From: Escherichia coli
Lineage (GTDB): Bacteria > Pseudomonadota > Gammaproteobacteria > Enterobacterales > Enterobacteriaceae
Reading direction: 5' to 3' (one strand)
Length of the DNA stretch: 64,000 nt
NCBI RefSeq assembly: GCF_041886205.1
Contig: NZ_CP169029.1
Shown one piece after another: positions 1 to 57,228 of this stretch. The notes beneath the pieces are model-generated. The model saw only the letters and a program-made list of their open reading frames with translations, had not been told where the DNA came from and ran no database searches. The translations under genes and the position numbers were made by a program. The first letter of the stretch is position 1; each line of letters starts with the position of its first letter.

Positions 1-132
1 CCGGCAGAGATGCCCGTTGGCGGCTACAAACACTCCGGCATTGGTCGCGAGAACGGCGTGATGACGCTCCAGAGTTACACCCAGGTGAAGTCCATCCAGG
101 TTGAGATGGCTAAATTCCAGTCCATATTCTAA
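1..132 (+). CDS. betB: Betaine aldehyde dehydrogenase, 3' end (5' end lies outside window)
   Basis: Frame 1 from position 1 translates ...[43 protein letters not shown] with stop TAA at 130-132; typical aldehyde dehydrogenase C-terminus; immediately upstream of betA as in the bet operon. Confidence 0.85.
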
Positions 133-145
133 CCAGGAGGTTTAT

Positions 146-1816
146 TTGCAATTTGACTACATCATTATTGGTGCCGGCTCAGCCGGCAACGTTCTCGCTA
201 CCCGTCTGACTGAAGATCCGAATACCTCCGTCCTGCTGCTTGAAGCGGGCGGCCCGGACTATCGCTTTGACTTCCGCACCCAGATGCCCGCAGCGCTGGC
301 GTTCCCACTACAGGGCAAACGCTACAACTGGGCCTATGAAACAGAGCCTGAACCGTTTATGAATAACCGCCGCATGGAGTGCGGACGCGGTAAAGGCCTG
401 GGTGGATCGTCGCTGATCAACGGCATGTGCTACATCCGTGGCAATGCGCTGGATCTCGATAACTGGGCGCAAGAACCCGGTCTGGAGAACTGGAGTTATC
501 TCGACTGCCTGCCCTACTACCGCAAGGCCGAGACTCGCGATGTGGGCGAGAACGACTACCACGGTGGCGATGGCCCGGTGAGCGTCACTACCTCCAAACC
601 CGGCGTCAATCCGCTGTTTGAAGCGATGATTGAAGCGGGCGTGCAGGCGGGCTACCCGCGCACGGACGATCTCAACGGTTATCAGCAGGAAGGTTTTGGT
701 CCGATGGATCGCACCGTCACGCCGCAGGGCCGTCGCGCCAGTACCGCGCGCGGTTATCTCGATCAGGCCAAATCGCGCCCTAACCTGACCATTCGTACTC
801 ACGCTATGACCGATCACATCATTTTTGACGGCAAACGCGCGGTGGGCGTCGAATGGCTGGAAGGCGACAGCACCATCCCAACCCGCGCAACGGCCAACAA
901 AGAAGTGCTGTTATGTGCAGGCGCGATTGCCTCACCGCAGATCCTGCAACGCTCCGGCGTCGGCAACGCTGAACTGCTGGCGGAGTTTGATATTCCGCTG
1001 GTGCATGAATTACCCGGCGTCGGCGAAAATCTTCAGGATCACCTGGAGATGTACCTGCAATATGAGTGCAAAGAACCGGTTTCCCTCTACCCTGCCCTGC
1101 AGTGGTGGAATCAGCCGAAAATCGGTGCGGAGTGGCTGTTTGGCGGCACCGGCGTTGGTGCCAGCAACCACTTTGAAGCAGGCGGATTTATTCGCAGCCG
1201 AGAGGAATTTGCGTGGCCGAATATTCAGTACCATTTCCTGCCAGTAGCGATTAACTATAACGGCTCGAATGCAGTGAAAGAGCACGGTTTCCAGTGCCAC
1301 GTCGGCTCAATGCGCTCGCCAAGCCGTGGGCATGTGCGGATTAAATCCCGCGACCCGCACCAGCATCCGGCGATTCTGTTTAACTACATGTCGCATGAGC
1401 AGGACTGGCAGGAGTTCCGCGACGCAATTCGCATCACCCGCGAGATCATGCATCAACCCGCGCTGGATCAGTATCGTGGCCGCGAAATCAGCCCCGGCAC
1501 GGAATGTCAGACGGATGAACAGCTCGATGAGTTCGTGCGTAATCACGCCGAAACCGCCTTCCATCCGTGCGGTACCTGCAAAATGGGTTACGACGAGATG
1601 TCCGTGGTTGACGGCGAAGGCCGCGTACACGGGTTAGAAGGCCTGCGTGTGGTGGATGCGTCGATTATGCCGCAGATTATCACCGGGAATTTGAACGCCA
1701 CGACAATTATGATTGGCGAGAAAATAGCGGATATGATTCGTGGACAGGAAGCGCTGCCGAGGAGCACGGCGGGATATTTTGTGGCAAATGGGATGCCGGT
1801 GAGAGCGAAAAAATGA
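146..1816 (+). CDS. betA: Choline dehydrogenase (GMC oxidoreductase, FAD-binding)
   Basis: TTG start at 146 preceded by AGGAGG at 135-140; product begins [15 protein letters not shown] (Rossmann GxGxxG) and is 556 aa; the track ORF 101..1816 includes upstream read-through. Confidence 0.93.
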
Positions 1817-2544
1817 GTCGTGATTTGAACTGACGCAAGTCCCTGCAAAGTTAAGCGTTACCGTCTTGAGATAGGTATACAAAGTCTCATACTTCTCTCT
1901 CAACAATCCGAAATAATCGGGTACCCGCGTTTACCGGATCAGGAAGGCATATACTATCCGGTCTGCGCTTTCTACTGCAATATTTCTAAAAGTTGCGCAA
2001 CACGCGGCAGGATAGTGCTTTTACGCAAAGAAGCACTTTCTGCCGCCCGGGAAATGCGCGCGTGCTATACGCCGTTTTACCTGAGATATGACAGAGTAAA
2101 GCCCTGTTAAAATACTCTTGTCGTCTCAGGTATAATAAGTGATTAATATCAATCATATATTTTTACAGCAAGACAACCACGTACAAACTCAGGATTAATA
2201 TGTTTTACCGATTCCCCAACATAACCCAAATCAAGCGAACTAATTTGTGCCATTTCTTTCTCTGTCAATGAGAAATCGATTTTTGATGGGCATCTGCAAT
2301 ACTCTGAAGCAGACTATAAGGAAAATTCTACTGCCCCCCTCCATTCCGCATGAACAATGAGTCTACGTTAAAACGTAACCTCAAATTAGTATGTGGATTT
2401 TGATATCACTTATGCAAAAAATTCATTAATAATGTAGGACTGAAACCTCTCTATTTTCGGGGACAACGAAGCAGACGCTACCAGTGCTTTTGCCTTCGGC
2501 CTTGCTGTTTTTGATACACTTAGGGCCCAGGGCATAACGAAAAT

Positions 2545-3189
2545 GTGCGATATGACGAAGAATTAATGGAGAATGTGATGATCAGGCAGAAGATTCTACA
2601 GCAGCTCCTGGAGTGGATTGAGTGCAATCTTGAGCACCCTATTTCAATCGAAGATATCGCACAGAAATCTGGCTACAGCAGACGCAACATCCAGCTTCTG
2701 TTCCGAAATTTCATGCATGTGCCTTTGGGAGAATACATTCGCAAACGAAGGCTTTGTCGTGCCGCCATTCTTGTCCGGCTCACCGCAAAATCTATGCTTG
2801 ATATTGCACTCTTTTTGCATTTTGATTCACAGCAGTCATTCAGCCGCGAATTTAAAAAGTTATTCGGCTGCTCTCCCCGTGAATACCGCCACCGTGATTA
2901 TTGGGATCTCGCAAATATCTTCCCTTCTTTTTTAATACGTCAACAGCAAAAGACGGAGTGTAGATTAGTCAACTTTCCTGAGACACCTATTTTTGGCAAT
3001 TCATTTAAATATGATATTGAAGTGTCGAATAAATCACCGGATGAAGAAGTCAAACTGCGACGTCATCATTTAGCCAGATGTATGAATAATTTTAAGACGG
3101 ATATCTATTTCGTCTCCACGTTTGAACCGTCAACAAAATCGGTCGATTTGCTCACGGTTGAAACTTTTGCCGGTACGGTATGCAGGTGA
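2545..3189 (+). CDS. AraC/XylS-family transcriptional regulator, 3'-truncated by IS1 (stop codon supplied by the IS1 left end)
   Basis: N-terminal HTH region (IEDIAQKSGYSRRNIQLLFRNF...SQQSFSREFKKLFGCSPREYR); the ORF ends at TGA 3187-3189, which lies inside the IS1 terminal sequence GGTGATGCTGCC starting at 3185. Possibly the ykgA-type regulator; not confirmed. Confidence 0.7.
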   Translation: MRYDEELMENVMIRQKILQQLLEWIECNLEHPISIEDIAQKSGYSRRNIQLLFRNFMHVPLGEYIRKRRLCRAAILVRLTAKSMLDIALFLHFDSQQSFSREFKKLFGCSPREYRHRDYWDLANIFPSFLIRQQQKTECRLVNFPETPIFGNSFKYDIEVSNKSPDEEVKLRRHHLARCMNNFKTDIYFVSTFEPSTKSVDLLTVETFAGTVCR

Positions 3190-3239
3190 TGCTGCCAACT
3201 TACTGATTTAGTGTATGATGGTGTTTTTGAGGTGCTCCA

Positions 3240-3515
3240 GTGGCTTCTGTTTCTATCAGCTGTCCCTCCTGTTCAGCTACTGACGGGGTGGTGCGTAACG
3301 GCAAAAGCACCGCCGGACATCAGCGCTATCTCTGCTCTCACTGCCGTAAAACATGGCAACTGCAGTTCACTTACACCGCTTCTCAACCCGGTACGCACCA
3401 GAAAATCATTGATATGGCCATGAATGGCGTTGGATGCCGGGCAACCGCCCGCATTATGGGCGTTGGCCTCAACACGATTTTCCGCCATTTAAAAAACTCA
3501 GGCCGCAGTCGGTAA
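3240..3515 (+). CDS. insA: IS1 InsA (transposition regulator/DNA-binding)
   Basis: 91 aa [43 protein letters not shown]... matches IS1 InsA. Confidence 0.92.
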
Positions 3516-3937
3516 CCTCGCGCATACAGCCGGGCAGTGACGTCATCGTCTGCGCGGAAATGGACGAACAGTGGGGCTATGTCGGGGCTAAATCGCGCCA
3601 GCGCTGGCTGTTTTACGCGTATGACAGGCTCCGGAAGACGGTTGTTGCGCACGTATTCGGTGAACGCACTATGGCGACGCTGGGGCGTCTTATGAGCCTG
3701 CTGTCACCCTTTGACGTGGTGATATGGATGACGGATGGCTGGCCGCTGTATGAATCCCGCCTGAAGGGAAAGCTGCACGTAATCAGCAAGCGATATACGC
3801 AGCGAATTGAGCGGCATAACCTGAATCTGAGACAGCACCTGGCACGGCTGGGACGGAAGTCGCTGTCGTTCTCAAAATCGGTGGAGCTGCATGACAAAGT
3901 CATCGGGCATTATCTGAACATAAAACACTATCAATAA
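3434..3937 (+). CDS. insB: IS1 InsB (transposase catalytic part, normally expressed as InsAB' by frameshifting)
   Basis: 167 aa ORF overlapping the insA 3' end in another frame; sequence ...[21 protein letters not shown]...MTDGWPLYE... typical of InsB. Confidence 0.88.
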
Positions 3938-4004
3938 GTTGGAGTCATTACCAACGATCAAATTCAAACCAGCATGAAACTTTATTAAGCGTATAACCCC
4001 ATCT

Positions 4005-4256
4005 TTATTGGCTATCTGGAGAGATTTTATGAACATATTCCAATTTCCCCTTTGGATTTAATTCAACTATTCCTGCTAGGTATAACCAGTCAAGAGATAA
4101 AACAAAAATTGATATAGACATTTCAATTTTTTTCTTTGTTTCGTAAAAAAGATCTATCAATTCAATTTCATCGAAACGTTTCAGCGTATCTATAATAAAC
4201 CCACCGTTATAATATAAGCTATCTTTAGGATGAATGTCCTTTGGTAACAACATCAT
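4005..4256 (-). CDS. Hypothetical small protein, 83 aa, overlapping the 3' end of the 326-aa gene (likely same operon)
   Basis: ORF start overlaps the upstream gene's stop by ~32 bp; same strand; same AT-rich composition; ends 53 bp from the IS1 right end. Confidence 0.45.
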   Translation of the reverse strand: MMLLPKDIHPKDSLYYNGGFIIDTLKRFDEIELIDLFYETKKKIEMSISIFVLSLDWLYLAGIVELNPKGKLEYVHKISPDSQ

Positions 4257-5205
4257 TCACTCCGTTAGGGTCCCTAAAAATTTTACAGCGTATGAACGCG
4301 TCCACTGCAAGTATACTAACACAAAGCTCCAGTTCCTCTAATGGTATTTGTGTAAAATTTGCACTTTTTCTGACCATTTCAACAGAGCTGTCAATTATTT
4401 TAAAAAATAACTCATCTCCAGTGTATTGTGTACTCAATTTTACGAAGATAGTTCTAAAGGAAGACAAAACTGAAAGGCTTGAGTTTTTACCCATCTGGTT
4501 GAACTCTGAATAAATGCGGGATACTTTTCCATGATGGATTTTGTAATCTTCAATAATATATTCAGCTGCATTCAAATTATTAAATGTAATCTTGTCAGTT
4601 ACATCGAATGGTTGCGGGAAGTCAGTAGTTTCAACATTAGAAAAATCCTCCTTAGCTAATATATTTATAACAGCAGCAATATTTGTTTCGATTAAAACAT
4701 TATCAGATTCCTCTTGTAACTCATTTTTTAGAAAACCGTGTATTTCTTTCTGTTTTGTTATGTCAAGATGTGAAATAACATTAAGTATCGATTTTACATC
4801 ATGAATATCTTGCTGCGGTATAAAAACCAAAGCATGAGGATTAGTGTAAGTTTTATTTCTTAAATCACTAGCATCTTTTGCAATTGATATAAATTTAAAC
4901 TGATGGCCTTTATATAATCTTAAGTCTTTGTTCAAGGCTGAATCAATTTTTGTTTTAGTTGCAGTTGATGAAACCTGTAATACTATCTTCCCATTCTCAT
5001 CGATAAGATCGATACCCTCAAAATTATGCTTCTCTTGATTAGTATTCTTTAGGGAATACCCAAATAATAAATTAAAGAAGTGAACATAAAAATCTTCACA
5101 ATGAAGATTATAGTTAAGAATATTTAACTTCCCTCTTAATTCAACGCTATAGCATAGCAACGTAAGCCTTTTCTCACATAAATCAAAATAAATAGATCTG
5201 TTCAC
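4225..5205 (-). CDS. Hypothetical protein, 326 aa, AT-rich accessory gene (possible phage-defence/abortive-infection-type effector; unverified)
   Basis: Long uninterrupted ORF in a visibly AT-rich block between IS1 and tRNA-Thr; no family recognised with confidence from sequence alone. Confidence 0.6.
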   Translation of the reverse strand: MNRSIYFDLCEKRLTLLCYSVELRGKLNILNYNLHCEDFYVHFFNLLFGYSLKNTNQEKHNFEGIDLIDENGKIVLQVSSTATKTKIDSALNKDLRLYKGHQFKFISIAKDASDLRNKTYTNPHALVFIPQQDIHDVKSILNVISHLDITKQKEIHGFLKNELQEESDNVLIETNIAAVINILAKEDFSNVETTDFPQPFDVTDKITFNNLNAAEYIIEDYKIHHGKVSRIYSEFNQMGKNSSLSVLSSFRTIFVKLSTQYTGDELFFKIIDSSVEMVRKSANFTQIPLEELELCVSILAVDAFIRCKIFRDPNGVNDVVTKGHSS

Positions 5206-5458
5206 ACATATTATCCTTAAACTATAAACTAATCCGATATTATGAACTTAGGTAAAGTAGAAAAACTCTTCACAGATCTTACAGCATCTACGAGCTGGTT
5301 CAAGGTATGTTGAGATGGATTGAGATGTGTAGCGTATCTTCTCATTCCAAAAAGAAACCTGCCACAATTTTGCCACACTCACAACGCGCAAAAATGCACA
5401 TTTGTGTTAAGAAAAGCAAAACAACGCAACAGTAACCAGATGATTTTATTAGAAAAAA

Positions 5459-6913: not shown

Positions 6914-8017
6914 TTAACGGGTAATCATGTCATCACGGTGAACGGCAACCGGGCCGTATTCATATCCCAGTATTGCATCAATTTCTTGCGAGTGGTGTCC
7001 GGCAATACGGCGTAATGCATCGCTGTTGTAACGACTGACGCCGTGGGCGATATCGCGGCCTTCGAGGTTGCAAATGCGGATGACTTCACCACGCGAGAAA
7101 TTGCCAGTCACGCTTTTAATGCCTTTCGGCAACAGGGAGCTGCCGCGTTCAAGAATGGCGGCGGTTGCCCCTTCATCTACCGTGATTTCACCCGCAGGCG
7201 GCGCACCGAAAATCCAGCGTTTACGGTTTTCAAGCGGAGTCGCCTGGGCATGGAACAGCGTACCGACGGAAATGCCTTCCATCACATCACCAATGACGCC
7301 CGGCTTGCTGCCCGCGGCAATAATGGTGTCGATACCCGCACGGCAAGCCACGTCCGCGGCCTGCAATTTGGTACTCATGCCGCCAGTTCCGAGGCCTGAA
7401 ACGCTGTCACCGGCAATCGCGCGCAGTGCGTCATCAATGCCGTAAACATCTTTAATCAGTTCTGCCTGCGGATTGCTGCGCGGATCAGCGGTGTACAAAC
7501 CTTTTTGATCGGTCAGCAGCAACAGTTTATCGGCACCCGCCAGAATCGCCGCCAGCGCAGAAAGGTTATCGTTATCACCGACCTTAATCTCTGCCGTAGC
7601 GACAGCATCGTTCTCATTGATTACCGGAACGATATTGTTATCGAGCAACGCACGCAGGGTGTCGCGGGCGTTCAGGAAGCGTTCACGGTCTTCCATATCA
7701 GCACGAGTCAGCAGCATTTGCCCGACGTGAATGCCATAAATCGAAAACAGCTGTTCCCACAGTTGAATCAGTCGACTCTGCCCTACCGCCGCCAGCAGTT
7801 GTTTCGAGGCGATAGTCGCTGGCAGTTCCGGGTAACCCAGGTGCTCACGTCCGGCGGCGATCGCGCCCGACGTCACAATAACAATCCGATGCCCGGCGGC
7901 ATGTAACTGCGCGCACTGGCGAACAAGTTCAACGATATGGGCACGGTTCAGACGGCGCGATCCGCCTGTTAGCACACTGGTGCCGAGTTTTACCACCAGC
8001 GTCTGGCTGTCACTCAT
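6914..8017 (-). CDS. proB: Glutamate 5-kinase
   Basis: Product begins [19 protein letters not shown] (internal Met of track ORF 6914..8104); amino-acid kinase domain plus C-terminal PUA-like region; 367 aa. Confidence 0.95.
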
Positions 8018-13426: not shown

Positions 13427-14041
13427 TTATCCTTCGATAAAAGCCATCCCTGTAAATGTCCGTCTCGGGTTGCCACGTTCAATCTGGTGATGGAACATTC
13501 GCCGCTGCGATTTCAGCACCGCGCTATTTTCCTGTTGCTGCTGCTCCAGCTTCCAGGCAATCAGCAATCGTGCCAGCCGCTTGTTAGCATGCTGACTACG
13601 CTCTGACTGAACCTTCACGCTAATACCGGATGCCAAATGCGTGGCGCGTACCGCCGAGTCGGTTTTATTGACATGTTGACCGCCCGGCCCCGACGAACGC
13701 AACGTCTCATAACGGATTGCATCCGATTGTTCCTGCTCATCAGCGGTAAAACGCCCAATGCCCAGAAACCAGTTTTTGCGCCCATGATGAGGCCGATACG
13801 GACTCGGACAAATCCACTGAATAGTGCCGCACCAACTTTCGCTTAATGCCCATGCGTTATCGCCATCCAGAGAAACCAGCGCTGAACGCAGCGTGTCAGA
13901 GTAGCGGCCCGTTTCGGTTTCCAGCACCGTTACCGCGACGTCTTGTCGGGCAGCTTCTTTAATTAGCCTGTCCAGCGCCTTTTTCACTGCGAGACAACAT
14001 TCTTCCGGCCCCTGCGCTGAGGAGAGTTGAAGCAAGATCAT
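13427..14041 (-). CDS. prfH: Peptide chain release factor homologue PrfH (RF-H), apparently full length
   Basis: Product from [16 protein letters not shown]... with the GGQ motif ([16 protein letters not shown]) of class-I release factors, about 204 aa; start ATG overlaps the upstream rtcB stop (ATGA at 14038-14041). Confidence 0.85.
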
Positions 14042-15204
14042 CCTTTTTTCCCTCCACTGTTTTTGAGCGTTAGCACCGGACGCAGCCGCGCGACAGGAAT
14101 AATTAAACCGGCCTGCACCAGACATTGCACCACGCTTTCAGCCGATTTATAGGCTTGTGGCGCTTCTTCAAAGATGAGTTGTTTATCGCGACAAATTACC
14201 CGACTGCCAAGTTCAGTACGCGAGAGTTGCGTCGCTGTGTATTTCGCTGCCAGACGCCCTTTACACTCGGTGCGCCCCCATTTACGCCCAGCCCCATGCG
14301 CCAGCGAGTGGAGCGTTTTTTCATTCGCAACAGGCTGTACAAGCCAGGAGTAATCACCGCGTGAACCGGGAATAATCACCAGACCGTTGTCATCCGGCGT
14401 GGCACCTTTACGATGCAACCAGCCCTGTTGATCGCCGATTTGACAGGCGCTAACAAAGTTATGCGCCACATCCAGAACCGGACTTCCGATAGCCTTAACT
14501 TGTTGCATTATGCGTAAAGCGATCAGCTGGCGATTAATACGCGCAAACGCCAGCGCATCGTCATGTTCCGCAATATACCGTAGCGTGTCGTCACTGCCTT
14601 CAGGCAAACCATGATGCGAAAACGAGGCAATATGCCGCTGTAAAATAGACTGCCCCAACCCCCGCGAGCCGCTATGAACCAACAGTTGCAGATGTTGTGC
14701 ATCCAGACCTGCCAGTGCAAACTGTTCAGCGTTGATGATTTGATCAACTTGTTGCAGTTCAGCGAAATGATTGCCGCCACCGATAGAGCCAAGCGAGCTG
14801 CGCCACGGATGCTGTGCAAATGCTGACGGCAGGTTTTCCTCCAGCCAGCTTTCTTCAGCAACGTCATCCAGATCTGATAATCGCTTTTCAAACTTATCGG
14901 CGTTGTATTTGCGAGCGAGAATATCTGTTTGCCATAGCGCCATGCCGCAGCCGATATCATTGCCGACCAGTGCCGGATAAAAACGGCCTGCGGAGAAGAA
15001 CGCTGCGCCAATCGGATAGCCGCGTCCGGGATGTAAATCTGGCATCCCCACTACGCGCTGCATGTTGGGTAAATTTGCCGTGGTGTGTAATTGTAGGATC
15101 GCTAAACTCTCGATCCACAGGTCATCAGATGCGATGGTAAATACCGCATCGGATAAGGGACGAATATAATTGCCCATATACCATTCCGTAAATAGACTCG
15201 TCAT
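14038..15204 (-). CDS. rtcB: RtcB-family RNA ligase paralogue (RtcB2-type; ykfJ position), apparently intact
   Basis: 388 aa with RtcB hallmarks (...[10 protein letters not shown]..., ...[13 protein letters not shown]..., ...[12 protein letters not shown]...); translationally coupled to prfH. Confidence 0.85.
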
Positions 15205-15422
15205 ACTTCAAGTTGCATGTGCTGCGACTTGAATTATTGAGAGTAACAATTAAAAAATCAGGAAATGGCAGACGAATCCAGGGCAAGAAAAAAAGAATTA
15301 ATCCTGGAAAGGTCTGCAAAGAGTCATTGATAAAGGATTTGTCATGATTTACCTCCTTGCAGTTTGTGGAATAAGAAAACGCGCACATATTAGGCGGGCG
15401 TTATTTTCATTGCAAGCTGGAT

Positions 15423-15875
15423 TTAATGTTGCGGTTTATAACGCATATAAAAATTAATAAACCACGCTCCCCGGCATTCAACGCGCTGCTGCTTAACTGT
15501 CTGAAAACCATAACGTTCAAAAAAGGGTTTTGCGGTTATGCTGGCGTCCACCGTAAGTTCGGATTCAGACTTAATCAAAGGTTTTAACAAAGCGCTGGCA
15601 ACCCCACGGCGGGTGTATTCAGGGTCAACAAATAACATATCGATATAATGTTCAATGCGGGAAATAAAACCAACCGGTTGTGCATTAATGACCGCAACCC
15701 ACACTTGTGATTTCGCGAGTTTCTCCTTCCAGCAAGATTCGTCAATCTGCGCCCAGGCGGCAATTTGTTGTGGAGAATAGTGCTGACTGGCGGTCATCGT
15801 AACCGCTCTAATAAAAATAGCGCATAGTTGCTGAAAATCGCCAGGCTGATAGTTTCTTATTTGTATGTTATTCAT
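15423..15875 (-). CDS. yafP: GNAT-family N-acetyltransferase YafP
   Basis: 150 aa [25 protein letters not shown]...; start overlaps the dinB stop by 4 bp. Confidence 0.85.
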
Positions 15876-16927
15876 AATCCCAGCACCAGTTGTCTTTCCA
15901 TTTGAGGGTCAAGCAACGTCACATGCAGCCCCACCAGTCGCACACCGCGCCCACCGCGGCGTTCATCCCAGGTTTTACGCGCGGTGGCGATTAAGTCAGC
16001 TTTATTCAGCCGCGGCCAGACATGCTCCTGGGTGGTTTGCTGAAAATCGTCGAACTTTAATTTCACCCCCTGGCGAGCAATCAGTAAATCAGGTTTTACC
16101 TTTGCCAGACGGCGTTCAAGTTCCGGATACAGCCGCTCGATAATCGCTTCACATTCAGACCAGTGATGAATATCTTCCGCCATCGTGCGTTCCACGCCGA
16201 CGGATTTTCGCAACCGTTCGCTGTTAACGTCGCGCTCGTCAATCCCCTGACTACGCTCCCACAAAATGCGGCCAAATTTGCCAAAGCGTTTAAGCAGCAT
16301 CACCAGATCACACTTTTGTACATCACCGCAGGTCCGCAGCCCCATCGCTTCCAGCTTCGCCGCTGAGACTTTGCCAACACCGGGAATTTTTGCCAGCGGT
16401 AAGGTTTGCAGAAATGCCGGAACTTCCGCCGGAGTAATCACAAACTGGCCGTTGGGTTTATTCATGTCGGAGGCGATTTTGGCGAGAAACTTTACTGGTG
16501 CCACGCCCGCAGACGCCGTCAGTTGTAGCTCGTTGAAAATCGTCTGGCGGATTTCCTGGGCGATGAGGGTCGCAGAACCGTGGCAATGGACGCTGTCGGT
16601 GACATCGAGATAGGCTTCATCCAGTGACAACGGTTCAATGCGCGAGGTGTAGCGCGAGAAGATTTCACGGATATGATTTGAGGCTTCTTTGTAGGCGTCA
16701 AAGCGCCCCGGAAGCAAGGTGAGATATGGGCATAATTTGAGCGCCATCCCTGTCGGCATAGCGCTACGTACGCCAAATTTACGCGCGGGGTAATTGGCGG
16801 TGCTGATCACCCCCCGACGTTCACGGCTGCCGCCAATAGCAATAGGGATATCGCGCAGGGCGGGATTGTCGCGCATCTCCACTGCGGCGAAAAAGCAGTC
16901 CATATCCACATGAATGATTTTACGCAT
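15872..16927 (-). CDS. dinB: DNA polymerase IV (Y-family translesion polymerase)
   Basis: 351 aa [58 protein letters not shown]... Confidence 0.95.
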
Positions 16928-16941
16928 TGCTCACCTCTCAA

Positions 16942-16961
16942 CACTGGTAAAGTATACAGTG
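16942..16961 (-). promoter_or_regulatory. LexA (SOS) box of the dinB promoter
   Basis: Reverse strand reads CACTGTATACTTTACCAGTG (CTGT-N8-ACAG consensus) about 15-35 bp upstream of the dinB start codon. Confidence 0.75.
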
Positions 16962-16997
16962 ATTTCAGGGTTTGAGAAATGCGTAAAGATTCAGCAT

Positions 16998-17690
16998 TTA
17001 ACGCGTTCGCTGCGAAAGCACCTGCTGCTTATCCAGCTTTTGCACCAGCGGCTGCACCACCTTATCCCCATGCTGACCAAAGTATTGATACAGCGTATCG
17101 GACGCACTTTTGGTCAGCACCATAATCTCAATGCGTCGGTTGCCCGCGCTTTGCGGATTTTTGGAATCCAGCAGCATCTGGTCCGCCATCGCGCTCACCT
17201 GCATCACTTTATCTTCCGGCATTCCTGCCTCTTCCAGCACCCGACGAGCCGAAAGCGCGCGGTCACCCGAAAGGTTCCAGTTGTTGTAGATATTATTTTT
17301 GTAGGCCATCGCATCGGTATGCCCGGTAATAATAATTTTGTTATCGAGCGAGTCGAAAACTGGCGCGAGCTCCACCAGCAGCGTTTTAAAGAACGGCATA
17401 ATCTGCGCGCTACCGCGTTCGAACATATTGCGATTCTGGTCGTCTTTAATCAGCACGCGTAATCCCTGCGGGACAATCTCCATCTCCAGATTCGCTTCCA
17501 TATGCGCATCACGGGCAATGGTGTTGATACTGGTTGCCAGCTCGCCAAGCTCGGTGGCGGATTTCATCTTCAGCAGCGCCGTTTTCTCGTTGACGTCGCG
17601 CGCTTTTTTCTCCGTCTCTTCCGGCACCGCCACGGTGGCAGGTTTTGGCGGATGAGACGGGCTGATTTTATTTAACGGCGACAACCCGCC
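16998..17690 (-). pseudogene. lafU: lafU remnant: MotB-like lateral-flagellar motor protein lacking its N-terminal membrane segment (Flag-2 remnant)
   Basis: Translation carries the MotB/OmpA-like C-terminal domain (...NWNLSGDRALSARRVLEEAGMP...); the 5' part of the track ORF is antisense to lfhA and not credible coding sequence. Confidence 0.7.
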
Positions 17691-17759
17691 GCCATTGAAA
17701 ATCGACTGCCCGTGCAGCGCGGCGATAATGCTTTCACGCTCGGATTTACTGACGCTGTT

Positions 17760-19467
17760 GACAATCAACTTTATCGTCGTCACCAAAGGGGCCGAGCGTA
17801 TTTCCGAGGTTTCTGCCCGCTTTACCCTGGACGCGATGCCCGGTAAGCAGATGGCGATTGATGCCGATCTTAACGCCGGATTGATCAACCAGGCGCAGGC
17901 GCAATCCCGGCGTAAAGATGTTGCCAGCGAGGCCGATTTCTACGGCGCGATGGACGGGGCATCGAAGTTTGTGCGCGGAGACGCCATCGCCGGGATGATG
18001 ATTCTGGCGATCAACCTGATCGGCGGCGTCTGTATCGGCATCTTCAAATACAACCTGAGCGCCGACGCCGCCTTCCAGCAATACGTGCTGATGACCATCG
18101 GCGACGGCCTGGTGGCGCAGATCCCTTCCCTGCTGCTCTCCACCGCGGCGGCGATTATTGTCACCCGCGTCAGCGACAACGGCGATATTGCCCATGACGT
18201 GCGCCACCAGCTGCTGGCAAGCCCGTCGGTGCTCTACACCGCTACCGGGATTATGTTTGTGCTGGCGGTGGTGCCGGGGATGCCGCACCTGCCGTTTTTG
18301 CTGTTCAGCGCCCTGCTTGGCTTTACCGGCTGGCGGATGAGCAAGCGCCCACAGGCGGCGGAGGCGGAAGAGAAAAGCCTCGAAACGCTGACCCGCACCA
18401 TCACTGAAACCAGTGAGCAACAGGTCAGTTGGGAGACGATACCGCTGATCGAGCCCATCAGCTTAAGCCTGGGCTACAAGCTGGTAGCGCTGGTGGATAA
18501 AGCCCAGGGCAACCCGCTCACCCAGCGAATTCGCGGCGTGCGGCAGGTGATTTCTGACGGTAACGGCGTGCTGCTGCCTGAGATCCGCATTCGGGAAAAC
18601 TTCCGCCTCAAGCCCAGCCAGTACGCTATTTTCATCAACGGCATTAAGGCTGATGAAGCGGATATTCCGGCGGATAAACTGATGGCCCTGCCCTCCAGCG
18701 AAACCTACGGCGAGATTGACGGCGTGCTGGGGAACGACCCGGCGTACGGAATGCCGGTCACCTGGATCCAGCCCGCACAGAAAGCGAAGGCGCTGAATAT
18801 GGGGTATCAGGTGATCGACAGCGCCAGCGTGATTGCCACGCATGTGAATAAGATTGTGCGTAGCTATATTCCTGATTTATTTAACTATGACGATATTACG
18901 CAGTTGCATAACCGTTTGTCGTCGATGGCACCGCGCCTGGCGGAAGATTTAAGCGCGGCGCTGAATTACAGCCAGTTGCTGAAAGTGTACCGCGCGCTGC
19001 TGACCGAAGGCGTTTCCCTGCGCGATATCGTCACCATTGCCACCGTGCTGGTCGCCAGTAGCGCGGTGACCAAAGATCATATTCTGCTGGCAGCTGATGT
19101 GCGCCTGGCGCTGCGGCGAAGCATTACCCATCCGTTCGTTCGCAAGCAGGAGCTGACGGTGTATACGCTGAATAATGAGCTGGAAAATCTGCTGACCAAC
19201 GTGGTGAATCAGGCGCAACAGGGCGGGAAAGTGATGCTCGACAGCGTGCCGGTCGATCCGAATATGCTCAACCAGTTCCAGAGTACGATGCCGCAGGTAA
19301 AAGAGCAGATGAAAGCGGCGGGGAAAGATCCGGTGCTGCTGGTGCCGCCTCAGCTGCGCCCTTTGCTGGCGCGTTATGCAAGGTTGTTTGCGCCGGGGCT
19401 GCATGTGCTGTCGTATAACGAAGTGCCGGACGAGCTGGAGTTGAAGATAATGGGGGCGTTGATGTAA
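17760..19467 (+). pseudogene. lfhA: lfhA remnant: FlhA-family flagellar export protein lacking its N-terminal ~130 aa and promoter (Flag-2 remnant)
   Basis: Credible FlhA homology begins ...GAERISEVSARFTLDAMPGKQMAIDADLNAGLI... and runs to the stop at 19467; no FlhA N-terminus and no start context. Confidence 0.7.
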
Positions 19468-20372: not shown

Positions 20373-21216
<844 letters not shown>

Positions 21217-21507
21217 AAACCGGCTGAATGAAGGTGAGAATTTTAAAAGACCGGAGGAGTAAACGGGATTATTAATTGCTTATTTGCATATTACTATTGA
21301 GGTTTCATAATCTTAGGAAATAAATGATACATGCGCTTTTCGGACTATTGAAAACTGCCCCTGTGCTAAATTTGTAAACCCAGCGCCGACAGGCTTGCGT
21401 AAAACTCTTTTGGTGATAATGTGAGCCTTCCAAATCCAGACTATTCCGATTTGGGATCCATTTTGCCGTCCTGGCGTGTGTAACCGTTTTATCAAGGAAT
21501 AAGCAGT

Positions 21508-53697: not shown

Positions 53698-56600
53698 GTG
53701 TTCAGATTACCAACACCCCGACTACTCAGCGGACTCAAATCAGCCCTGCGACCGGCGATGCCCCGGTTTAAAGTCTCTGCTTTCTGGCTGCTGATACTGG
53801 CGTGGATTTTTCTGCTGGTGTGGATCTGGTGGAAAGGCCCGACGTGGACGCTGTATGAAGAACAGTGGCTCTAAACCACTGGCGAACCGCTGGCTGGCAA
53901 CGGCGGCGTGGGGGATTATTGCCCTGATGTGGCTTACCGTCCGGGTGATGAAGCGCCTGCAACAGCTTGAAAAACAGCAAAAACAACAGCGCGAGGAAGC
54001 CGTTCGATCCGCTCAGTGTGGAACTGAACGCCCAGCAGCGTTACCTCGACCGCTGGCTGCTGCGCCTGCAACGCCATCTCGACAACCGCCGTTTCCTGTG
54101 GCAATTGCCGTGGTATATGGTCATCGGCCCGGCGGGCAGTGGCAAAACGACACTGCTGCGCGAGGGGTTTCCGTCAGACATTATTTATGCCCCGGAGGGC
54201 TCGCGCGGCGCAGAACAACGCCTGTACCTTACGCCCCATGTCGGTAAACAGGCGGTGATCTTTGATATCGACGGCACACTCTGCGCTCCCGCTGATGCGG
54301 ATATCCTGCATCGCCGTCTGTGGGAACATACCCTCGGCTGGCTGAAGGAAAAGCGCGCGCGCCAGCCCGCTGAACGGGATTATTCTGACACTCGATTTAC
54401 CCGATCTGCTGACCGCAGACAAGCGCCGCCGTGAGTATCTGCTACAGACGCTGCGCAGCCGCTTGCAGGATATACGCCAGCATCTTCACTGCCAGCTACC
54501 GGTTTACGTGGTACTGACCCGGCTTGATTTATTGCAGGGTTTTGCCGCCCTGTTCCAGTCCCTGAACAGACAGGATCGTGATGCGATTCTGGGTGTCACG
54601 TTCACCCGCCGTGCCCATGAAAATGATGACTGGCGAACAGAGTTGAATGCTTTCTGGCAGACATGGGTGGATCGAATGAATCTGGCGTTGCCGGATCTGA
54701 TGGTCGCTCAGACTCACACCCGCGCGTCTTTATTCAGTTTTTCCCGCCAGATGCAGGGAAGCCGTGAACCCCTGGTGTCACTGCTTGAAGGTCTGCTTGA
54801 CGGCGAAAATATGAACGTGATGCTGCGTGGTGTCTATCTCACCTCGTCACTGCAACGCGGCCAGATGGATGACATCTTTACCCAGTCCGCCGCCCGCCAG
54901 TACCGGCTGGGCAATAACCCACTGGCGTCCTGGCCCCTGGTGGACACCGCGCCTTATTTCACCCGCAGCCTGTTCCCGCAGGCATTACTCGCAGAGCCTA
55001 ATCTGGCAACGGAGAGCCGTGACTGGCTGATGCGTTCCCGTCGCCGCCTGACGGTTTTCTCTGCCACAGGCGGCGTGGCGGCACTGCTGCTCATCACCGG
55101 CTGGCATCACTATCACAACGGTAACTATCAGTCCGGCATCACCGTGCTTAAGCAGGCCAAAGCCTTTATGGACGTGCCGCCTCCGCAGGGGAAAGACGAC
55201 TACGGCAACCTGCAACTGCCGCTGCTGAACCCGGTACGCGATGCCACACTGGCCTATGGCGACTGGGGCGACCGCAGCCGTCTGGCCGATATGGGACTGT
55301 ACCAGGGACGACGTATCGGGCCTTATGTGGAACAGACCTATCTGCAACTACTAGAGCAGCGTTACCTGCCCTCGCTGTTTAACGGGCTGGTCAAAGCGAT
55401 GAACGCCGCGCCGCCGGAGAGTGAGGAAAAACTCGCCGTGCTGCGCGTGATGCGAATGCTGGAGGACAAAAGCGGACGCAATAATGAGGTGGTGAAGCAG
55501 TATATGGCAAAACGCTGGAGCGAAAAAGTTCCACGGCCAGCGTGATATCCAGGCACAACTGATGTCCCATCTTGACTACGCGCTGGCTCATACTGACTGG
55601 CATGCAGAGCGTCAGGCGGGCGACGGTGACGCCATCAGCCGCTGGATGCCATATGACAAGCCCGTGGTATCAGCACAGAAAGAACTGAGCAAACTGCCTG
55701 TCTACCAGCGGGTTTACCAGAGCCTGAAAACGCGGGCGCTGGGCGTTCTTACCTGCTGACCTCAATCTGCGTGACCAGGTAGGGCCAACCTTTGACCAGG
55801 TCTTTACATCTGCCGATGACAACAAACTGGTTGTTCCACAGTTTCTTACCCGTTACGGCCTGCAAAGCTATTTTGTAAAACAGCGCGATGAACTGGTTGA
55901 ACTGACGGCAATGGATTCCTGGGTACTCAACCTCACCCGCAGTGTGAAATACAGTGACGCCGACCGCGCGGAAATCCAGCGCCAGTTGACCGAGCAGTAT
56001 ATCAGCGACTACACCGCTACCTGGCGAGCCGGGATGTGACAATCTGAATATCCGCAATTTTGAGTCCATTGGACAACTGACCGGGGCGCTGGAGCAGGTT
56101 ATCAGCGGCGACCAGCCTTTGCAGCGGGCGCTGACTGTGTTGCGTGACAACACACAGCCAGGCGTCTTTTCTGAAAAACTTTCTGCCAAAGAACGGGATG
56201 AGGCTCTGGCAGAACCGGACTACCAGTTGCTCACCCGCCTCGGGCATGAATTTGCCCCGGAAAACAGTACTCTGGCAGTACAGAAAGACAAAGAAAGCAC
56301 GATGCAGGCCGTGTATCAGCAACTCACCGAGTTGCACCGCTATCTGCTGGCAATTCAGAACGCGCCTGTACCAGGGAAATCGGCGCTGAAAGCCGTGCAG
56401 TTGCGGCTTGATCAGAACAGCAGCGATCCGATATTCGCCACCCGCCAGATGGCAAAGACACTGCCTGCTCCGCTCAACCGCTGGGTTGGCAGACTGGCTG
56501 ACCAGGCCTGGCATGTGGTGATGGTGGAGGCCGTTCACTATATGGAAGTGGACTGGCGCGACAGCGTGGTGAAACCGTTTAACGAGCAACTGGCAAATAA

Positions 56601-57228
56601 CTATCCGTTTAATCCGCGTTCTGCACAGGATGCCTCACTGGATGCCTTCGAACGCTTCTTTAAACCGGATGGCATACTGGATACCTTCTACCAGCAGAAC
56701 CTGAAGCTGTTTATCGACAATGACCTGAGTCTGGAGGATGGCGATAACAGCGTCATTATTCGCGAAGATATTATTGCGCAACTGAAAACCGCGCAGAAAA
56801 TCCGTGACATCTTCTTCAGTAAACAGAACGGTCTGGGAACATCCTTTGCCGTGGAAACGGTATCGCTCTCCGGCAACAAACGCCGCAGTGTACTGAACCT
56901 TGACGGCCAGTTAGTCGATTACAGCCAGGGGCGCAACTATACCGCCCATCTGGTCTGGCCTAACAATATGCGCGAAGGCAACGAAAGCAAACTGACGCTC
57001 ATCGGCACCAGCGGCAACGCGCCGCGCAGTATCAGCTTCAGCGGGCCGTGGGCGCAGTTCCGCCTTTTCGGGGCCGGACAACTGACCGGAGTTCAGGATG
57101 GCAACGTTACCGTGCGCTTTAGCGTGGACGCTGGCGCGATGACCTACCGTGTGCATACCGACACTGAGGATAACCCATTCAGCGGTGGGTTATTCAGCCA
57201 GTTTGGTCTGTCAGACACACTGTACTGA
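53698..57228 (+). pseudogene. tssM: tssM (IcmF-like membrane-complex component), about five frameshifts
   Basis: GTG start with N-terminal transmembrane helices (...FWLLILAWIFLLVWIWW...); Walker A ...MVIGPAGSGKTTLL...; pieces in ORFs 53967..54434, 54463..55545, 55562..55759, 56119..57228. Confidence 0.75.

Follow-up and report, generated by a model that had tools for sequence, protein, structure and literature searches.

Results

dinB and yafP overlap directly in the window

The locus lies within a 64-kb stretch of Escherichia coli DNA (hereafter, the window), to which all coordinates refer unless another locus is named. The two genes and their control region comprise the following features:

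15872..16927, minus strand: dinB, DNA polymerase IV, 351 aa (open reading frame and Pfam; C-terminal sequence QLVLGL)
15423..15875, minus strand: yafP, GNAT-family N-acetyltransferase, 150 aa (open reading frame and Pfam)
15872..15878, minus strand: junction ATTATGA, in single copy in the window, holding the dinB stop codon TGA and the yafP start codon ATG
16930..16939, minus strand: Shine–Dalgarno region GAGAGGTGAG, upstream of the dinB start (sequence read; conserved across loci)
16942..16961, minus strand: LexA (SOS) box CACTGTATACTTTACCAGTG (sequence read; core CTG-N10-CAG at 16959..16944)
16951..16956, minus strand: −10-like hexamer TATACT, inside the LexA box (consensus scan)
16973..16978, minus strand: −35-like hexamer TTCTCA of the dinB promoter (consensus scan; identical in a K-12-type strain)

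The boundary between the two genes reads ...CTGGGATTATGAATAAC... As read from the sequence, the dinB stop codon TGA occupies positions 15874–15872 and the yafP start codon ATG positions 15875–15873, and the ATGA at 15872–15875 is common to both; dinB ends in the frame CTG GGA TTA TGA, and yafP begins one base before the stop codon, with ATG AAT AAC. An earlier reading of this DNA, made from the letters alone (the sequence-only reading), had described a 4-bp overlap between the dinB stop and the yafP start, and this is what is found. The pair is thus of the AUGA type, in which the downstream start overlaps the upstream stop, and both of its members, a Y-family polymerase and a GNAT acetyltransferase, are intact, with full-length open reading frames. 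DinB has all four domains of the Y-family polymerases (IMS, 2e-50; IMS_HHH; IMS_HHH_1; and IMS_C), and YafP has the GNAT domains Acetyltransf_10 (2e-20), Acetyltransf_7 and Acetyltransf_1. The YafN–YafO type II toxin–antitoxin (TA) system, a PhdYeFM-type antitoxin followed by a toxin of the YafO_toxin family (PF13957), is absent: BLASTN of the K-12-type yafN–yafO segment against the whole 64-kb window gave zero matches, in agreement with the claim that no such pair separates dinB from yafP. With its ATGA overlap and no gene in between, the junction has the form of the two-gene allele of strain CFT073 (see below). We found no convincing intrinsic terminator after yafP; a scan returned none on the minus strand, the best hairpin having a z of −1.4.

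The hexamers of the dinB promoter match the consensus at 9 of 12 positions and are separated by a 16-nt spacer; this site, overlapped by the LexA box, is the only promoter-like one before dinB. Over the 75 nt upstream of dinB, promoter and LexA box included, the window is identical to the K-12-type strain. The 16-nt core of the box, CTG-N10-CAG, is invariant in the 25 Escherichia loci compared (25/25); in Citrobacter, Kluyvera and Pseudocitrobacter it persists as CTGTATACTT-N3-CAG. The sequence-only reading had placed a conserved LexA box at 16942–16961, and both the position, which is exact, and the conservation hold.

Other features of the window

Downstream of yafP, rtcB (RtcB RNA ligase family) and prfH (release factor H), at 13427–15204 on the minus strand, are full-length in the window and in CFT073; in K-12- and O157-type loci both are truncated pseudogenes. 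A 15-codon open reading frame (15298–15358, minus strand; MTNPLSMTLCRPFQD), unannotated in the nearest genome, lies between yafP and rtcB; it is preceded by a perfect Shine–Dalgarno sequence, AAGGAGG, 6 nt before its ATG and could be a leader peptide or a small protein of the rtcB–prfH unit. On the other side of dinB, a truncated lfhA (flhA-like) and lafU overlap tail to tail (16998–19467), which is the usual deletion scar of the Flag-2 lateral flagella and is found in K-12 too. In strain 20.1 (locus L019) and E. marmotae (L008), motA is still present upstream of dinB together with lafU at its full length, and in further strains hicAB lies between yafL and what is left of lfhA. Another TA pair that K-12 has in this neighborhood, dinJ–yafQ, is also absent: it has no match anywhere in the window, and in the dpaA–yafL intergenic region (about 21143–21368) some 225 bp replace about 830 bp of the K-12-type locus L002.

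The genome closest to the window, that of wlxctx60, is otherwise 99.9% identical to it and lacks a 34-kb segment (27919–61811) that carries type VI secretion genes. The large genes of this system appear to be broken, with a 284-aa piece of VgrG, a 446-aa piece of ClpV and a TssM/IcmF split into at least two open reading frames (54463–55545 and 56119–57228); just one open reading frame in the segment reaches 450 aa. Positions 1–5457 of the window, which encode a GMC oxidoreductase at 101–1816, are not colinear with wlxctx60, where a tRNA-Thr is followed by a degraded integrase.

The window differs from the K-12 operon by a cassette and one copy of a 7-bp repeat

The sequence-only reading had given the K-12 operon as dinB–yafN–yafO–yafP, a four-gene arrangement for which PMC3105422 cites McKenzie et al. 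(2003) and Singletary et al. (2009). In a K-12-type record (L002, from strain DTU-1) the genes are annotated in just this order, with a 51-nt gap between dinB and yafN and a 9-nt gap between yafO and yafP. Alignment of the two loci shows that dinB and yafP are separate in the K-12 type and that the window is shorter by 759 bp. The sequence ATTATGA occurs twice in L002, at the end of dinB (7123–7129) and at the start of yafP (7882–7888), and once in the window; the difference of 759 bp is made up of the 752-bp yafN–yafO cassette and the second copy of the 7-bp ATTATGA. Each four-gene Escherichia locus that we examined has a copy of this 7-mer on either side of the cassette. The direct repeat is therefore the 7-bp ATTATGA and not only the ATGA given in the literature (PMC3105422). 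The cassette, whose ends are TGTATACTATTATG... and ...TTTTTGAATTTAT, has no inverted repeat or transposon-like ends that are apparent by eye.

Besides the identical 75-nt control region, the window and the K-12 type share nearly the same two proteins. DinB differs at one residue, H68Y (codon 68, at about 16726), the His being common to K-12-type strains and the nearest genome, and YafP differs at four. The K-12-type allele is also the one nearest to the yafP of the window (98.0% identity, against 94.7–97.1% for the other two-gene E. coli).

The closest described counterpart is the two-gene operon of CFT073 and UTI89, which has in common with the window the gene pair, the ATGA overlap, the LexA box and the promoter, as well as the neighbors, with lafU upstream and rtcB–prfH–pepD downstream. 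The CFT073 locus (L012), which is without the cassette, aligns with the window end to end, and the differences are allelic only, with nucleotide identities of 96.0% for dinB and 94.9% for yafP and eight residues different in YafP; the flanks of the window are closer to the K-12 and O157 types than to CFT073.

Both arrangements are common in E. coli

The junction was surveyed in 5,426 complete E. coli genomes. A probe of 80 bp that spans it, matching over at least 80% of its length, detected the contiguous arrangement in 2,564 (about 47%); the yafNO cassette was present in 2,847 (52%), of which 2,831 matched at least 80% of the cassette. This survey of presence and absence had been suggested in the sequence-only reading. 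Intermediate genomes are few; strain GF43, for example, has yafN and lacks yafO.

Gutierrez et al. [quoted passage not shown] In their sample, nearly all phylogroup A strains had four genes and all B1 strains two; E. fergusonii had four, from which they deduced that the pair had been deleted independently three times or more (PMC3105422). The polarity opposite to that of Gutierrez et al. (2011) was adopted by Fraikin et al. (2020), in J Bacteriol: for UTI89 and similar strains they speak of dinB–yafP as an "undisturbed bicistronic operon", and of yafNO as an insertion (PMC7167474). The polymorphism, the ATGA junction, its frequency of about 50:50 and both candidate histories have thus been in print, the earliest since 2011, and the window almost certainly carries the dinB SOS operon of E. 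coli in an ordinary two-gene form, the CFT073/UTI89 type.

Collapse of yafN–yafO by an assembly or sequencing artefact would also give a contiguous junction, and its probability is negligible: the same junction is present in 2,564 complete genomes and in other species, the dinB and yafP frames are intact, and wlxctx60 is 99.9% identical to the window throughout the region. On the strength of the genome count and of wlxctx60 we rule it out.

The contiguous pair is found in related species and genera

A scan of genome contigs with YafP, by exact 8-residue patterns, gave five loci, none of them from E. albertii or from E. fergusonii, the outgroup on which Gutierrez et al. (2011) relied. In E. marmotae (L008), with the same ATGA overlap, and in Escherichia sp. 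MOD1-EC7003, dinB and yafP are contiguous in conserved synteny. They are also contiguous in Citrobacter amalonaticus and a second Citrobacter-like organism, where the junction reads TAA-CCGCG-ATG, in Kluyvera sichuanensis (TAA-CC-ATG), and in an Escherichia-like contig, L041, in which the 3′-end of dinB is about 85% identical to that of Escherichia and the junction, CTGGGGTTATAAATAATATGCAACTAAGAGAATAT, is colinear base for base with that of the window, CTGGGATTATGAATAACATACAAATAAGAAACTAT. Judging from these junctions, the ATGA overlap arose through a TAA to TGA change and a three-codon shift of the start codon. A locus labelled 'E. coli' (L040), with a YafP of 65% identity, was set aside for its poor assembly with broken genes, and a protein look-up of the Yokenella YafP (P0036) had nothing on record.

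More distant YafN–YafO pairs (67–69% identity) occur in Klebsiella and Pectobacteriaceae, where the surroundings are unrelated and island-like, and YafO-family genes are present on 141 plasmids. Together with the contiguous pair in the outgroups, these island and plasmid contexts indicate that dinB–yafP was contiguous first, so that the uninterrupted pair would be the ancestral architecture into which yafN–yafO was later inserted.

The insertion may nonetheless be older than the genus Escherichia. In Pseudocitrobacter (L029–L031, 2097–4358), identified by exact protein look-up, the order is dinB–yafN–yafO–yafP, at the same site and behind nqrF–nqrM. The left junction is the same as in E. coli (dinB TGA|TGTATAC), the repeats have decayed to ATTGTGA and ATCATGA, and YafN and YafO are 84–85% identical to the E. 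coli proteins (85% for YafO). An insertion of this age leaves room for deletion within Escherichia, where two-gene alleles could be secondary losses. This four-gene operon is not mentioned by Gutierrez et al. (2011) or Fraikin et al. (2020).

The cassette is less diverged than the genes that flank it

Four-gene loci are present in E. whittamii and in strain SCPM-O-B-8794, which has an early stop codon in yafO, as well as in E. coli. Across eight four-gene E. coli, mean dS was 0.154 for dinB, 0.084 for yafN, 0.035 for yafO and 0.093 for yafP. Between K-12 and E. whittamii, synonymous differences were counted at 62 of 253 sites in dinB, 5 of 60 in yafN, 3 of 84 in yafO and 14 of 92 in yafP; pooled, this is 8/144 for the cassette against 76/345 for dinB and yafP together (Fisher p = 3e-6). 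An intrinsically low synonymous rate of yafN–yafO was rejected as the cause, since all four genes have reached saturation at synonymous sites in the comparison of E. coli with Pseudocitrobacter. By this measure, the cassette alleles of Escherichia have a more recent common ancestor than the surrounding DNA, which suggests that the cassette moved between backgrounds by homologous recombination.

In a neighbor-joining tree of dinB and yafP, the two- and four-gene states are interspersed, and the flanks of the window cluster with K-12, O157 and PK5074, in a group of mixed state. Near-identical flank haplotypes occur with different states, as in FDAARGOS_1302 (four genes) and KC-Dl-1 (two), or O157 86-24 (four) and PK5074 (two), and state changes must therefore be both recent and recurrent. 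The toxin gene has also commonly decayed independently: in two loci yafO is interrupted by internal or early stop codons, and an identical clean deletion of 383 bp, with TTAT as the microhomology, has taken it out of both GF43 (E. coli) and E1V33 (Escherichia sp.). The resulting orphan-antitoxin intermediates, in which yafN is kept (L014 of GF43, 4543–4918; L004 of E1V33, 3625–4000), thus occur in two species backgrounds.

Discussion

Two histories for the junction of the window

The sequence-only reading had offered two origins for the shorter operon, ancestry or a clean excision, and both still stand after the present tests. If the site was never occupied, or came by homologous recombination from an allele that had never been occupied, a history to which we give not quite an even chance, then the contiguous pair in related species and genera, and the colinearity of the window junction with that of the more distant L041, follow directly. 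The relative youth of the cassette against its flanks speaks for the same history, and so does the identity of the two ATTATGA copies of four-gene Escherichia, even at unconstrained positions, which suggests that the overlap existed before the duplication. Less easily accommodated are the yafP of the window, nearest to the otherwise four-gene K-12 type, the position of its flanks in a mixed-state group, and the Pseudocitrobacter operon, which shows that the insertion can be old.

In the proposal of Gutierrez et al. (2011), a four-gene ancestor lost 759 bp between direct repeats by illegitimate recombination or slippage, the overlap being recreated in the process; we consider this history, too, just short of evens. 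All four-gene loci examined offer a suitable substrate, a perfect 7-bp direct repeat around the cassette, and the locus has undergone other short-repeat deletions, those of yafO at TTAT in GF43 and E1V33, in addition to the inactivation of yafO by stop codons in two loci. The pairs of near-identical flanks with opposite states point the same way, as does the four-gene state of E. fergusonii (PMC3105422); the cassette of FDAARGOS_1302 is a distinct, diverged allele, which favors a recent loss in KC-Dl-1. Against these stand the contiguous pair in the relatives, which shows that a four-gene form was not the original one, and the low diversity of the cassette, unexpected if it had been inherited vertically together with its flanks; moreover, the product of such a deletion is indistinguishable from an unoccupied site. 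Indeed, a site that was never occupied, a precise deletion at ATTATGA and allelic replacement by homologous recombination all yield an identical sequence. With the flanks of the window in a mixed-state group and its yafP closest to the K-12 allele, we regard 'never occupied' and 'secondarily lost' as about equally likely for this lineage.

Expression of yafP from the contiguous operon

In the strain represented by the window, the LexA-repressed promoter, with its −10 hexamer inside the LexA box, would drive a single dinB–yafP transcript. In CFT073, itself a two-gene strain, YafP–YFP is induced by mitomycin C, as part of the SOS response, and in stationary phase (PMC3105422); from this precedent and the identity of the control region, the window strain probably also makes YafP from a single SOS-inducible transcript. 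No good Shine–Dalgarno sequence is found upstream of the yafP ATG, only a weak GGGA 3 nt before it. Coupling by termination and reinitiation is usual for AUGA overlaps, and the weak GGGA in combination with this overlap makes it most likely that YafP synthesis is translationally coupled to that of Pol IV, ribosomes that terminate on dinB restarting on the spot at the yafP start. Such coupling would restrict YafP synthesis to ribosomes that have just finished making Pol IV, which would fit the report that YafP raises the cytotoxicity of nitroaromatics unless Pol IV is present (PMC3105422). Ribosomal frameshifting has also been suggested for YafP (PMC3105422) but seems unnecessary, as yafP has its own ATG and its own frame.

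Implications for the dinB operon

The locus resembles that of mazEF within relA–mazG, discussed in PMC7167474, in that a small TA module is present or absent inside an otherwise intact bicistronic operon; for insertions of the mazEF type and of the yafNO type alike, TA-free strains keep the operon undisturbed. Unlike the mazEF example, the window represents the empty state; here the insertion falls on the stop/start overlap itself and, when present, has a copy of the 7-bp duplication on either side. To the existing debate our analysis adds the 7-bp duplication, the outgroup junctions, the four-gene operon of Pseudocitrobacter and the youth of the cassette, and so refines it.

A more general reading, held tentatively and at rather less than even odds, is that yafN–yafO is a selfish insertion in an ancestrally contiguous junction, marked by the duplication of ATTATGA, and that its movement by homologous recombination between lineages and species of Escherichia postdates the coalescence of its flanks. 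If true, this would reverse the polarity proposed in 2011 (a four-gene ancestor and at least three deletions), and strains like that of the window would represent the original state and not the outcome of a deletion. The locus is in this respect of modest evolutionary interest for chromosomal TA cassettes, where selfish spread is set against repeated loss. For the strain itself, the two-gene arrangement means that it is without an SOS-linked YafO mRNA interferase; expression of yafP would depend on the LexA-controlled dinB promoter alone, any promoter of the cassette being absent, and operon maps drawn for K-12 should not be carried over to it.
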